From the IMG/VR virus record IMGVR_UViG_2778261527_000011: a stretch of DNA of 4,749 nucleotides; one strand, written 5' to 3'. The notes below the pieces were generated by a model, which was given only the letters and a program-made list of their open reading frames with translations, was not told the DNA's origin and ran no database searches. Both the position numbers and the translations under genes were made by a program. How positions within the stretch are numbered: the first letter of the stretch is position 1; every line of letters begins with the position of its first letter. This stretch comes from a virus (lineage: Duplodnaviria > Heunggongvirae > Uroviricota > Caudoviricetes). Positions 1 through 4,256 of this stretch are shown in pieces.

Positions 1-1164
1 TTACGCCTTCTTTATATCCTCCATAATTCCACAGTGGGACATATTTGGGACATTATCACCAAAAATGTCGTCTATTTTCCTTGCATGCTCTGTCAAATGA
101 TTAGGCGCAAGGTGAGCATACCTACGAACCATTTCTATGGACTCCCATCCGCCCATTTCCTGAAGCACAGATAATGGGACGCCTGACTGGATCAGCCAGC
201 TTGCCCAGGTGTGTCTGAGGTCATGGAAACGGAAATCTTCAATTCCTGCACGACGACAAGCTGATAGCCATGATGTCTTGCTGTCGATGCGCATCTTCCT
301 GACCGCAGGCGTTGATGTTCCATCTGCTCGCTTAGCCGCCTTGGTATGTACAAACACCCATTTGTGATGCTTGCCTATTTGATCACGCAACACTTTACAG
401 GCGGTATCGTTCAGCGCCACACCAATGGCGCGGTTTGATTTGCTCTCTTCTGGATTCACCCAGGCAACTCGTCGCTGCATGTCGATTTGTTGCCATTCCA
501 GATTTATGATGTTCGACTTTCTCAGACCAGTTGCCAGCGCAAACTTGACGACAGATTTCAGTGGTTCGGGGCACTCATCAATAAGGCGTTTTGCTTCCTC
601 CTTTTCCAGCCATCTGACTCGCTTGTTTCTGACCGCTGGTATCTTGATGACAGGCGCTTTTTCCAGCCACTTCCAGTCGCGTTCTGCAGCACGGAGAATG
701 GCCTTTATCATGGCAAGATGCTTTGCCTTTGTCTGAGTTGATACTGGCTTTGGTTCATAAACAGGCGGTTCTTTACCTTTCCTGATGGCGGCCTGAACTT
801 TCTGTTTCCATATTTCTTTCGTCTTTCTGTTATGCATTCTGCTTACAGCAGAGTAAATCTTTGCCTCCGAGATATCTTTAAGCCTTATACCCTCAAAATG
901 TTCAAGCCAGAACTCAATCCGGCTTTTATCTGAATCGAGAGATTTTTTATCAGCTTTTTCCTCAAGCCATCTTAGGCAGGCCTCTTCAAAAGTGACATCA
1001 GGTAAATCCCCTAGCTTTTCTACTCGCCAGAGTTCTGCTTTTCGCTTGTCGTGCAACTCCTGAGCTTGCCGCTTGTCCTTTGTGCCAAGAGATTCCTTAA
1101 TTCGTTTCCCGCCCGGGAGCGAATACGAGGCATACCATATTTCATTTCTGCGGAAGAGTGACAT
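1..1164 (-). CDS. int: Tyrosine site-specific integrase, lambda/P22 family (387 aa, complete; stop at window positions 1-3)
   Basis: Full ORF from the six-frame track. Translation carries the tyrosine recombinase catalytic signature in the C-terminal half (ATGLRKSN...[13 protein letters not shown]...MVRRYAHL, i.e. R / H-x-x-R / Y). From memory the N-terminus ([37 protein letters not shown]) closely resembles P22-type Int; not verified by search. SD-like GAGGAAA lies 4-5 nt upstream of the ATG at 1162-1164. Confidence 0.95.
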
Positions 1165-1403
1165 TTTCTTTCCTCTGTTATGCCATCACCCGCGCTCACC
1201 TGGACAGTATGCAGCGGAGACTGAAGCGCCGCAATGCAAGCTTGCCGTGTTGTGAGGTAAGGAGATTTTGGCTTGGTTGGATCTTTACGTGTTGCCTGTA
1301 GGCGGCCTGTGCGTATCCAGTTAATGGCAGTCGGTCTGGATATTTTGAGAAAATGACAGGCCTCATCGAGTGTGAGGCTGTAAGCACACTGACGGCACGC
1401 ATA
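1020..1403 (-). pseudogene. xis: Excisionase-like (winged-helix / HTH_17-type) reading frame with no in-frame start codon; overlaps the int 5' end by about 140 bp
   Basis: Manual translation of the minus strand in the frame offset from ORF 1196..1663 gives ...[54 protein letters not shown]..., matching the excisionase/AlpA-type HTH pattern (compare lambda Xis N-terminus MYLTLQEW...). The frame is open from a TAA at 1404-1406 to a TAG at 1020-1022, but contains no ATG/GTG/TTG before the HTH. The nearest ATG (1400-1402) is in the frame of the upstream ORF. Confidence 0.5.
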
Positions 1404-1663
1404 TTATCAGCATCGATAAAGCAGCGGGTGCCTTCATCTGCAAGATCTTTAGAATAACGGGTAAAGTCATCGATGCTGGCAGTGGAAAGCGCACCACGGA
1501 AACGGAAGCGATTTAAATTAAATTTTTCCAGATCATGAATGCAGAAATTCTCAGGCAATGCTACAGCATCGGCACCAATCTTACTGATAATTTCATTAAC
1601 ACCCTGAGCAGAAATAAGGGCATGGATTTGATTAATTGCGGTTGCGTCTAAGTTCTGAGACAT
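1196..1663 (-). CDS. Hypothetical prophage protein; only the N-terminal ~87 codons (about 1403..1663) look like genuine coding sequence, the rest of the ORF is the wrong-frame reading of the xis-like region
   Basis: Track ORF. ATG at 1661-1663 preceded by GAGGA with 6-nt spacing. The first ~87 aa ([88 protein letters not shown]) look like a folded protein; the remainder is low-plausibility sequence, while the alternative frame over the same DNA encodes a recognisable HTH. Family not assigned. Confidence 0.5.
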
Positions 1664-1728
1664 AATAAGTCCTCACTATATAAAGATATTCAGTGATGAG
1701 ATAAATAATCAGTTAATTAAAAACGATA

Positions 1729-2091
1729 TTAACGACCTGCTGCGCGGAGTTTTCCGTCAGGTTCACCGGCAAGAGTCAGCAACTGTCCCTGGTCTTCCTG
1801 CAGAATAGTCAGGCGACCACCGCGATTGACATACATCGGCGTTTCGGTGGTGTCTTCTTCGGAAATTTTCCCGCGGTTAGTCGGGCGAACATATGAGAGT
1901 TTGTGTTTGATTTTCACTCGGTTCTCATCAAACGGTTCGATTTCTAGGTTGAGAGAGACCTTACCTTTGGTTTTCGTGTTCATCACACCGGAAGCGACTT
2001 CACTGAGAACTGCGCCGATTTTGGTTTCAAATACGCCGCCGTCCAGCTCCCCGATAAATGCCTGCACATCAGTACTGCGTTCGCTAGCCAT
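1729..2091 (-). CDS. Hypothetical small prophage protein (120 aa)
   Basis: Track ORF 1729..2409, trimmed to the ATG at 2089-2091 (MASERSTDVQAFIGELDGG...), which is preceded by a strong SD GAGGAG (2099-2104) with 7-nt spacing. The upstream extension to 2409 translates to low-complexity R/P/G-rich sequence from GC-rich DNA. No family recognised from sequence alone. Confidence 0.7.
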   Translation of the reverse strand: MASERSTDVQAFIGELDGGVFETKIGAVLSEVASGVMNTKTKGKVSLNLEIEPFDENRVKIKHKLSYVRPTNRGKISEEDTTETPMYVNRGGRLTILQEDQGQLLTLAGEPDGKLRAAGR

Positions 2092-2135: not shown

Positions 2136-2330
2136 CTCCACAAAACAGAGAAGAACACCTGCGGTGACTGCCGCCCGGATGGATTGGGTTATGAGCCCGT
2201 CGTCCGGTGATGCTCTTCTCTGTTTTGTAAAAAGGACGGTACCAGCCGGAAGCAAGGGTACAAGCTGGTACCGCCAGGACTACACACAGCATAAAGTTGT
2301 GGTGCCGGGTGCCTCCCGGTGCCTGGCGAA
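2136..2330. other. GC-rich non-coding spacer dense in dyad symmetries; candidate structured RNA or regulatory DNA
   Basis: Perfect 15-bp inverted repeat ACAAAACAGAGAAGA (2140-2154) / TCTTCTCTGTTTTGT (2214-2228) enclosing 59 nt that contain further small stems (GCGG/CCGC 2161-2174; CCGGA/TCCGG 2175-2207). Perfect 10-bp hairpin CGGTACCAGC (2237-2246) / GCTGGTACCG (2264-2273) with a 17-nt loop. CCGGG-tgcct-CCCGG (2305-2319), extendable to 9 bp with G-U pairs in RNA. All six-frame ORFs here overlap each other in several frames and translate to junk. Confidence 0.3.
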
Positions 2331-2500
2331 GGTTGCACACCAGGCGGGTGGGTATCCACAGAAGGTCGACTGTCAGCCTCAACCTTAACCCGCGTGCGCT
2401 GAGCCGCATTCACCACAACGCTAAGGATTCTCTCTGGTTGAAAATACTTAGCTGTTATGTGCCTGCTTTTAGCCACATCAGGCGAGGTGGACCTAGTTAT

Positions 2501-2546
2501 TCCCCAACAACAAGGATTCGGTTAATCTGGATATCCCCAACAACAA
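2501..2546. repeat. 13-bp perfect direct repeat TCCCCAACAACAA, two copies 33 bp apart start-to-start
   Basis: Copies at 2501-2513 and 2534-2546, immediately upstream of the candidate start of the rightward ORF (2561). An inverted partial copy of the AACAACAA core lies at 3203-3210 on the other side of that ORF. Confidence 0.6.
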
Positions 2547-2560
2547 TAAGAGTATTCAAT

Positions 2561-3076
2561 GTGATCGCTGAATTAACGGCAGCAATGACGGCTATTCGTG
2601 AAACAGCCCAGATTGCAAAACTAATGAACGAGGCAAAAACTCAAGCTGAAGTAAATGCGGCTATTGGTGAGCTGAACTCAAAGCTTGCGTCTATTCAGCG
2701 CGAATGCGTGTCTCTCTTTGAACTGGTGGGCTCTTATCAAGAAATAAATGCTTCTCTCAAAGCTAAAATTGCAGAATTCGAAAACTTTGAGGCTCAGACG
2801 GAAGGCTATATCCTTAACCAACTTGAGTCGGGTACTTTTGTATACTCGAAGGAGGTAATCGTGAACGGTGGCAGCATAACCATGCATCTTTGCCCAAAAT
2901 GTTTTGGACAAAAGATAGTATCGATACTTCAACCATTCCCGGTTAGCGAAGATGAGCTTTTTCATAAAAGCAGGTGCCTCCACTGTGAAAATAAGTTTCT
3001 GATGAATAAAAATCCGGATTACGTATCGCCTCCATCCATTGAGGAGTTGTCCAGAAAACTTAACGGCAATCTGTAG
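2561..3076 (+). CDS. Hypothetical protein with N-terminal coiled-coil and C-terminal C4 zinc ribbon (CPKC-x24-CLHC); moron-like accessory gene, function unknown
   Basis: Long plus-strand ORF (track 2297..3076) whose 5' extension is GC-rich junk. Plausible starts are GTG 2561 (AAGAG 8 nt upstream) or ATG 2585 (no clear SD). The N-terminal ~70 aa are heptad-like (AQIAKLMNEAKTQAEVNAAIGELNSKLASIQRE...LKAKIAEFENFEAQ); the C-terminus carries two CxxC pairs. Visibly more A+T-rich than the flanking spacer. Followed by an intrinsic terminator. The antisense ORF 2678..2983 has artefact-like composition. Confidence 0.6.
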   Translation: MIAELTAAMTAIRETAQIAKLMNEAKTQAEVNAAIGELNSKLASIQRECVSLFELVGSYQEINASLKAKIAEFENFEAQTEGYILNQLESGTFVYSKEVIVNGGSITMHLCPKCFGQKIVSILQPFPVSEDELFHKSRCLHCENKFLMNKNPDYVSPPSIEELSRKLNGNL

Positions 3077-3115
3077 ATTACTACTGTTGTGGATATCCAG
3101 ATTGTTAAAGAGCTA

Positions 3116-3140
3116 AGCGTCCTGTAGGGCGCTTTTTTGT
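3116..3140 (+). terminator. Rho-independent terminator for the rightward zinc-ribbon ORF
   Basis: Stem AGCGTCC (3116-3122) / GGGCGCT (3127-3133), 7 bp including one G-U pair, loop TGTA, followed by T-run 3134-3138. Begins 40 nt after the TAG at 3074-3076. The reverse strand lacks a T-tract, so it is unidirectional. Confidence 0.6.
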
Positions 3141-3207
3141 TGCTAACGAATCATCCTGGACTTCATATGCCCCAGGCGGCTACTTCGTGGGCGTCCTGCC
3201 TGTTTGT

Positions 3208-3251
3208 TGTTTCTCTTGGGTACATTATGTATCTCATAGGTACATTGTCAA
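3208..3251 (-). promoter_or_regulatory. Candidate pL-like leftward promoter with overlapping operator-like sites (OL analogue)
   Basis: Minus strand reads TTGACA (plus 3246-3251, consensus -35), then a 16-bp spacer, then CATAAT (plus 3224-3229); alternatively a 17-bp spacer with ATAATG. Operator-like imperfect palindromes TGTATC-tcata-GGTACA (3228-3244) and TGTTTC-tcttg-GGTACA (3208-3224) overlap the spacer/-10/start region. Position (just past the repressor-gene terminator) matches lambda OL/pL topology. Confidence 0.45.
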
Positions 3252-3290: not shown

Positions 3291-3965
3291 TTAGGCTTTG
3301 ATTTTGTATCTTCTTGGTTTTCCTGAGAAAATCACAGTTCCAATTATAGAGCAATTACCGTTGATCTTAATGTAAGGCTCAGGCCAGTTTGGGTTTAACG
3401 CTTTGAGATAACGCTGTGTCCCATCTTCTATCAACCTTTTGAAGGTGGTTTCACCTGTATCGTGCATCAATGCAATAACGTCGTCACCGTGGCAGGCAGG
3501 TACTTCAGGATCGACAAAAATCATGTCTCCCGGGCGGTACTCATCAATCATTGAATCACCTATCACCCGCAAGATATAAGTCATTTCCCCACAGGGTACA
3601 GGGCAGGGATACGTTTCTGCTGTGCTCAAATCAACCTCAGAATATCCAACTTCTTTCCATGCTCCGGCCTGTACCCATGATATGACAGGGACTAATGTGA
3701 TTTGTTTATTAGTGATTGAAACATCAGGTTTTTTTGTGATGTTCGTTGTCTGGTGTTCTTGATCGAGCCATCCGACAGGCAGGTCGAAACATTTTTCGAT
3801 GTGTCGTGCCATGCTGTCACCGATATTTTTAGTAGCACCATCTCCCATAAACCTGCTGGTCTGGGTTGGCTCGCGATCAATCATAGTGGCAAAGGAAGAA
3901 TTCCCTCCAACACCATCTCTCAGTTTTCTGGCGTTAGACCGCCGGATGTCATGGATTGTTTTCAT
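3291..3965 (-). CDS. Phage CI-type repressor with C-terminal LexA-like S24 autopeptidase domain (224 aa)
   Basis: Track ORF. The C-terminal domain has the S24 serine-lysine dyad context (RVIGDSMIDEY ... TTFKRL) and an Ala-Gly candidate cleavage site (SWVQAGAWK). Sits divergent from a cro-like gene with palindromic operators between them. No SD upstream of the ATG; the predicted pRM start coincides with the ATG (leaderless, as for lambda cI). Confidence 0.9.
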   Translation of the reverse strand: MKTIHDIRRSNARKLRDGVGGNSSFATMIDREPTQTSRFMGDGATKNIGDSMARHIEKCFDLPVGWLDQEHQTTNITKKPDVSITNKQITLVPVISWVQAGAWKEVGYSEVDLSTAETYPCPVPCGEMTYILRVIGDSMIDEYRPGDMIFVDPEVPACHGDDVIALMHDTGETTFKRLIEDGTQRYLKALNPNWPEPYIKINGNCSIIGTVIFSGKPRRYKIKA

Positions 3966-4055
3966 AACGAAATTAAAACCCCTGTACCGTTAAGGTACAA
4001 GTATCTTGAAGGTTCATTTCAATCATGTAATATGTACACCGGAGGTACATATTGT
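3966..4055. promoter_or_regulatory. Immunity switch region: divergent pRM-like (leftward) and pR-like (rightward) promoters with 17-bp palindromic operators, consensus TGTACC-N5-GGTACA
   Basis: Operators: perfect palindrome TGTACCGTTAAGGTACA (3983-3999); TGTACAccggaGGTACA (4033-4049, 11/12); weaker AGTATCttgaaGGTTCA (4000-4016). pR-like: -35 TTGAAG (4006-4011), 16-bp spacer, -10 TAATAT (4028-4033), then SD GGAGG (4041-4045) and the cro ATG at 4056. pRM-like on the minus strand: -35 TTGTAC (plus 3995-4000), 17-bp spacer, -10 TTTAAT (plus 3972-3977), predicted start at or near the repressor ATG (3965). Confidence 0.55.
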
Positions 4056-4256
4056 ATGAAAGCGTATTGGGACTCTTTAACCAAAGAACAGCAGGGCGAG
4101 TTGGCCGGAAAAGTTGGCTCAACTCCTGGCTACTTACGGCTGGTTTTCAATGGCTATAAAAAAGCCAGTTTTGTGCTGGCTAAAAAACTTGAGCAATGCA
4201 CGTCAGGTGCAATTACGAAATCTGACTTAAGACCGGATATCTATCCGAAAGATTAG
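4056..4256 (+). CDS. Cro-like small DNA-binding regulator (66 aa), YdaS/Cro family
   Basis: ATG at 4056 preceded by GGAGG (4041-4045). Product MKAYWDSLTKEQQGELAGKVGSTPGYLRLVFNGYKKASFVLAKKLEQCTSGAITKSDLRPDIYPKD has the size, position and C-terminal LRPDI-type motif I associate with enterobacterial prophage Cro/YdaS proteins. The track ORF 3753..4256 is the same frame with a spurious N-terminal extension overlapping the repressor gene. Confidence 0.8.
   Translation: MKAYWDSLTKEQQGELAGKVGSTPGYLRLVFNGYKKASFVLAKKLEQCTSGAITKSDLRPDIYPKD

Follow-up and report, generated by a model that had tools for sequence, protein, structure and literature searches.

A microhomology-associated deletion joins yfdQ to xis in a DLP12-family prophage remnant at argU of Escherichia coli

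At the argU tRNA gene of Escherichia coli lies a lambdoid prophage remnant of the DLP12 family, in whose int-proximal end a deletion has very probably truncated both yfdQ and the excisionase gene xis, leaving the body of xis untranslatable and the remnant effectively locked. The stretch analyzed here, referred to as the window, comprises 4,749 nucleotides (IMG/VR record IMGVR_UViG_2778261527_000011). According to the explanation favored here, a single microhomology-mediated deletion joined codon 94 of yfdQ to codon 4 of xis; the xis body (codons 4-123) is complete and unmutated but devoid of a start codon, and ribosomes translating the truncated yfdQ (yfdQ') would pass through it in the wrong frame until they met the stop at 1198-1196. 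The deletion defines a new pseudogene allele of xis in a cryptic prophage of the DLP12 family, and its significance hardly extends beyond annotation. It does, however, represent a clean case in which a microhomology-mediated deletion inactivates the excisionase and spares the integrase, and loss of the former with retention of the latter is a common step in the ‘grounding’ of prophages.

The features of the window are compiled in Table 1. The product of intD matches the Pfam profile Phage_integrase over positions 1-171 of 172 (E = 5.5e-47) and the gene shows 100% DNA identity to its counterpart in E. coli O103:H2 12009 (WP_001298992.1), in line with an earlier statement that int is intact. Two E. 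coli draft assemblies (L004 and L005) contain the whole window with 100% identity, and in both of them int is followed by tRNA-Arg(tct), a Response_reg/GerE regulator at the position of fimZ, fimbrial genes and folD-type genes. Placement of intD directly beside tRNA-Arg(UCU) argU and next to fimZ/sfm, by which the DLP12 family was recognized, was thus found in both assemblies. Of the late region, L004 has kept quuD, the porin gene, essD-rrrD-rzpD, bor, ybcV and ybcW and has lost the morphogenesis genes; apart from deletions and a break inside nohD it is collinear with L012, an argU prophage of the intact type.

Table 1. Features of the analyzed window
Feature	Position	Strand	Basis or remark
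intD, P22/DLP12-type tyrosine integrase, 387 aa, intact	1..1164	minus	full-length ORF; Pfam Phage_integrase
xis remnant, codons 4-123 plus TAG stop (1022-1020), P22-type excisionase	1382..1020	minus	without start codon and Shine-Dalgarno sequence
Deletion junction, 2-bp microhomology TA	1381..1382	minus	BLAST segments overlap by 2 nt; side-by-side sequences
Lead-in to the xis body, out-of-frame yfdQ DNA	1383..1409	minus	TGA TAA stops (1409-1404), then YACRQCA
yfdQ', first 94 of 274 codons of the YfdQ/DUF2303 gene	1382..1663	minus	identity and DUF2303 profile
Chimeric 155-aa ORF	1663..1196	minus	YfdQ residues 1-94 plus 61 residues of xis in the wrong frame
yfdP	2091..1729	minus	ORF listing and family scans
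171-aa gene, phrog_1244	2561..3076	plus	ORF listing and family scans
cI-like S24 repressor gene	3965..3291	minus	ORF listing and family scans
cro/YdaS-like gene	4056..4256	plus	ORF listing and family scans
cII-like gene	from 4300	plus	ORF listing and family scans

Window positions 1750..1000 were compared by megablast with phage records and 5426 complete E. coli genomes, and the query was split into two segments overlapping by 2 nt: positions 1750-1381 match yfdP-yfdQ with an identity of up to 99.5%, and positions 1382-1000 match xis-intD with up to 100%. In the intact relatives (phage Kati, phage SfIV, E. coli O103:H2 12009 and E. coli O20:H12 Res13-Lact-PEB17-18) the order of genes is yfdP, yfdQ (274 aa), yfdR, one or two small genes, yfdT, xis and intD. 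Relative to them the window has lost the 3' two-thirds of yfdQ, yfdR, the one or two small genes, yfdT, and the Shine-Dalgarno sequence together with the first three codons of xis. The missing segment amounts to 1874 bp when an O103:H2 12009- or Kati-like reference is used (L003 1129..3002), and to 2426 bp when the comparison is made with L012, which possesses a PAPS-reductase gene in the interval; the ancestral segment may have had either length. At the breakpoint, marked here by a slash, intact yfdQ reads ...GCCGTCAGTGTGCTTA/ACCTGGG, intact xis reads AAGAGGTGAAATA ATG GAG CCA TA/C AGC CTC ACA, and the window reads ...GCCGTCAGTGTGCTTACAGCCTCACA. The dinucleotide TA, common to yfdQ (GTGCTTA/ACC) and xis (GCCATA/CAG), is the sole homology at this point, which argues for an illegitimate, microhomology-mediated deletion. 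Microhomology of 2 bp is typical of such events.

The allele is rare, since no record spanning the junction was present among the 5426 complete E. coli genomes or among 50,697 phage records. Exact-match scans for the junction returned nothing from genome contigs (50-mer), viral contigs (50-mer) or metagenome contigs (30-mer). An exact look-up of the chimeric protein retrieved the identical 155-aa sequence from eight contigs of at least four independent assemblies (including GCA_904810445.1, GCA_002456195.1, GCA_946061175.1 and SRR9914234), where it stands beside intD, tRNA-Arg(UCU) and fimZ. Recurrence of the same junction in these assemblies excludes an error of sequencing or assembly.

Recombination between two prophages, for example between a CPS-53/KpLE1-like yfdQ and a DLP12 xis, could also have created such a junction in place of an internal deletion. 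It would agree with the unequal identity to L003 (97.8% on the yfdQ side, 100% on the xis-int side), with mosaicism among the relatives and with the occurrence of yfdPQRST modules in several types of prophage. We nevertheless consider this origin very unlikely: both flanks are collinear in intact relatives at the same argU locus, L012 is about 99.3% identical on both sides, immunity region and 171-aa cassette included, the 2-bp microhomology fits illegitimate deletion, and the chromosomal flank (argU, fimZ, sfm, folD) is free of rearrangement.

An internal deletion had already been proposed in the preliminary description of this DNA, made from the letters without database searches, which assumed that the 5' part of an upstream gene had been joined to the body of xis with removal of the xis start. 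The alignment to intact int-xis regions that it recommended bears this out and locates the junction at window 1382-1381, at yfdQ codon 94 and xis codon 4. The end of plausible upstream sequence has to be shifted from about codon 87, as then estimated, since genuine YfdQ reaches codon 94 (window 1382). Discovery of the same arrangement, with demonstrated excisionase activity, in intact relatives was to have counted against the proposal; what these relatives possess is an ATG-led xis with a Shine-Dalgarno sequence.

On the upstream side of the junction, yfdQ' shows 98-99% DNA identity to its counterparts in SfIV, Kati and L003, and the match ends at window 1381. The DUF2303 profile is covered from position 2 to 95 of 269 (ORF residues 7-99), and the domain is therefore partial compared with that of the intact YfdQ of 274 aa. 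Because the frame of xis is -1 relative to that of yfdQ', the latter continues through 61 out-of-frame xis codons to the stop at 1198-1196, and the initial observation that the ORF beginning at 1663 runs into the xis region in a different frame was correct. In NCBI nr the resulting 155-aa product is labelled ‘CPS-53 (KpLE1) prophage protein’, although it would be better annotated as a yfdQ'-'xis chimeric pseudogene.

As an alternative to the deletion, it had been suggested that the ATG at 1402-1400 is the true start of xis, cut off from the body of the gene by a 1-nt frameshift or a sequencing error immediately behind it, and this ATG is indeed situated 20 nt upstream of the xis homology with a frame offset by one base. 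It is Met88 of YfdQ, however, and upstream of 1381 the window shares 98-99% identity with this gene and does not resemble the sequence that precedes xis; native xis begins MEPYSL behind a Shine-Dalgarno sequence of its own, and the identical junction occurs in the independent assemblies named above. A frameshift at this ATG is consequently ruled out. The intact relatives also lack ATGCGTGCCGTCAGTGTGCT upstream of xis.

On the downstream side, from codon 4 (TAC) onward, the xis remnant is 100% identical in DNA to intact xis of L003, and in an alignment with Xis of P22, SfI and Kati (alignment A1) the window differs only by replacement of the N-terminal MEP. An excisionase-type helix-turn-helix (HTH) was found in the xis frame of the window, where Pfam HTH_17 scored 34.5 bits (cut-off 27; E = 2.4e-8), whereas TIGR01764 ‘excise’ reached 25.8 bits, slightly below its cut-off of 28.8. 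The intact counterpart of 123 aa matches PHROG 2907 ‘excisionase’ (E = 5e-45) and is 77.6% identical to P22 Xis (NP_059585.1, 116 aa) over 116 aa, in accordance with the P22-like assignment of the preliminary description; when the PDB was searched with the intact sequence, only a marginal match appeared (Pukovnik Xis, 4j2n, E = 0.46). As in P22, xis is adjacent to int and overlaps it, by 145 nt in the window (1020-1164) compared with 124 nt in the phage, and both the overlap of about 140 bp and the end at 1020-1022 had been anticipated well. P22 Xis itself has been characterized by experiment as a recombination directionality factor that bends DNA (Mattis et al., 2008, as cited in PMC7498355).

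A second reading frame crosses the same region, and its ATG-led ORF of 56 aa (1366..1196) could be regarded as the real gene, with the HTH frame being fortuitous. In the record of phage Kati (PP925833.1) this ORF is an annotated CDS, and the frame concerned (+1 over the xis HTH region, window 1196-1381, minus strand) is open to the same stop, preceded by ILSR, in five of five relatives examined (P22, SfI, Kati, L003 and L012). Substitutions between P22 and E. coli were therefore counted over xis codons 1-75, which lie upstream of the overlap with int. They amount to 17 synonymous and six non-synonymous differences in the xis frame versus two and 22, respectively, in the alternative frame, a pattern indicating that the excisionase frame is under purifying selection and the tail frame is not selected. 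Pfam HTH_17 and PHROG 2907, moreover, match the excisionase frame, either in the window or in the intact counterpart, and xis of P22 is annotated and has been studied biochemically (PMC7498355). With two synonymous against 22 non-synonymous changes, the 56-aa ORF was rejected as a gene.

Annotation of P22-type xis was found to be inconsistent in general. The wrong-frame 56-aa ORF is given in the Kati record (L001 2517-2687), intact copies of xis are labelled ‘incomplete’ pseudogenes by PGAP (L003 2908-3087; L012 17786-17851), and SfIV (L002 5141-5584) carries a 147-aa ‘excisionase’ begun far upstream of the conserved ATG. At this locus, calls of pseudogenes are hence not to be trusted unless an alignment backs them.

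In the window the xis frame opens directly behind the stops TGA TAA (1409-1404), and the seven codons of the lead-in YACRQCA stand in place of the native AAGAGGTGAAATA-ATG-GAG-CCA. No ATG, GTG or TTG follows in this frame before the GTG at 1199-1197, which is located downstream of the HTH; the lack of a start in front of the HTH was among the first things noticed in this DNA. Both ATG GAG CCA and AAGAGGTG have been deleted, and the remnant has neither the start codon nor the ribosome-binding site of a translatable gene. Judged by its sequence, the window copy is a pseudogene of the P22-type excisionase family and no functional member of it, and Xis protein would not be made from this allele.

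Active Xis might still arise if translation began at a non-canonical codon (ATA/ATT) or if a -1 frameshift yielded a YfdQ(1-9x)-Xis fusion. The body of xis is free of mutations when compared with intact copies (100% identity), it sits in the -1 frame of yfdQ', and in-frame ATA/ATT codons occur at 1343, 1325 and 1316. These codons, however, lie inside the HTH and have no Shine-Dalgarno sequence, and the sole canonical start, GTG 1199, would give a fragment of 59 aa lacking the HTH. The only heptamer of the type X XXY YYZ, TTTAAAT (1517), lies upstream of the xis-frame stops TGA TAA (1409-1404), where a shift would end in termination, and no slippery heptamer was found downstream of these stops, as a programmed -1 frameshift would demand. 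A recent deletion, together with the constraint that the overlapping int imposes, accounts better for the complete identity of xis. Continued synthesis of active Xis appears extremely improbable, and the loss of translation through the deletion is preferred.

A close parallel is the annotated pseudogene xisD of E. coli K-12 MG1655 (b4633), which belongs to the same element family at the same argU locus, with an intD 99.4% identical in DNA, and which is likewise a 5'-truncated xis joined by deletion to a fragment of an upstream early gene beside an intact int. The K-12 truncation is independent and larger: its homology ends at window 1259, at about xis codon 45, the HTH is gone and the remainder is joined to exoD', whereas in the window xis is joined to yfdQ and only codons 1-3 and the Shine-Dalgarno sequence were lost. 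Furthermore, the window remnant has retained its cI/cro/cII immunity region, while none is annotated in the K-12 DLP12 stretch examined. A literature search on DLP12 xisD returned nothing. From P22, in which the HTH region is nearly identical and the gene also lies directly upstream of int and overlaps it, the E. coli version differs in its length (123 aa versus 116 aa) and its divergent C-terminal tail, and the window copy in addition by the missing start and Shine-Dalgarno sequence. The modules of SfIV, Kati, O103:H2 12009 and Res13-Lact-PEB17-18 are 98-100% identical to the window on both flanks of the junction, but have retained the interval of 1.9-2.4 kb and an ATG-led xis. Among complete E. 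coli genomes, 2670 matched xis plus 30 nt upstream, 2129 of them over at least 80% of the query and about 20% only partially. The K-12 copy (L011, MG1655 565858-566079) shows a pattern of 60% coverage, which was observed in many complete genomes, K-12 derivatives included.

Integrases of the P22 type require Xis for bending att DNA and for directing excision, and Int-mediated excision of the remnant should thus drop to a very low basal level. The remnant would then be effectively locked at argU, where ‘locked’ denotes strongly reduced excision and not its complete absence. DLP12 of K-12, whose xisD lacks the whole HTH, still excises detectably, in fewer than 1 per 100,000 cells (PMC3105296), and the term ‘excision-defective’ accordingly has to stand for a strong reduction. 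Xis could be supplied in trans by a further P22-type prophage of the same genome. In L004, a second copy of the argU 3' end (attR) was not found within 11.6 kb to the left of int, so that the remnant might fail to excise for other reasons as well.

The lesion in xis is one step of ordinary prophage decay, as replication and morphogenesis genes have also been lost through other deletions. Compared with L012, L004 exhibits at least two further ones: about 3.6 kb are missing between an O-like HTH gene and a DUF968 gene, which are fused with a 5-bp overlap at the junction (L004 6225-6229), and a break inside nohD (L004 1-380) has removed the packaging genes and all that lies past it, including the terminase gene and the nohD that L012 carries. 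Head or tail genes were not encountered in the L004 stretch examined, and in L007 the immunity region is additionally deleted (L007 6218-6280). With a size of about 12 kb, the remnant is incapable of phage production regardless of xis. A different role for the lesion, either as a selected ‘grounding’ mutation that keeps the porin, Bor, cI immunity and the phrog_1244 cassette together with Int, or through production of an HTH-less fragment of Xis, is in our estimation most improbable. In the case of the fragment, the TGA ending the chimeric ORF and the GTG at 1199-1197 overlap in the sequence GTGA, and by stop-start coupling the C-terminal 59 residues of Xis might be translated and might modulate Int. 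Ordinary decay is the reading retained here.

Several other features of the window deserve mention. Upstream of yfdP, positions 2226-2449 (minus strand) match the Rfam sRNA STnc100 over its full length (1-206 of 206), with a score below threshold (42.4 bits versus a gathering cut-off of 47; E = 5.8e-7), and the stretch folds somewhat better than shuffled sequences (z = -2.5). In relatives, PGAP calls a ‘frameshifted hypothetical protein’ over it. It is also crossed by an ORF of 226 aa (1729-2409), which is annotated as a CDS of 681 bp in SfIV (gp34) and Kati (CDS0006), while yfdP measures 363 bp in RefSeq.

The 171-aa gene (2561-3076; phrog_1244, E = 3e-59) encodes a protein with a coiled-coil-like N-terminal half and a C-terminal CxxC...CxxC arrangement. 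It had no significant match in Pfam, and PADLOC recorded none for this protein, YfdP or YfdQ. Its transcription converges with that of the early-left operon, and a terminator-like hairpin (3115-3134) marks its end. Since the cassette (2545-3081) has no match in phage SfIV, which contains different genes there, it occupies a swappable slot of the moron type between cI and yfdP.

Operator-like repeats with GGTACAT / TATGTA were seen on both sides of the cI-like gene (3206-3251 and 4023-4059), and the left set is overlapped by a strong sigma-70-like promoter on the minus strand (3251-3224; TTGACA-16-CATAAT, 11 of 12 matches). The left repeats and the promoter probably constitute PL/OL, and OR probably occupies the space (3966-4055) that separates the repressor gene from the cro-like gene.
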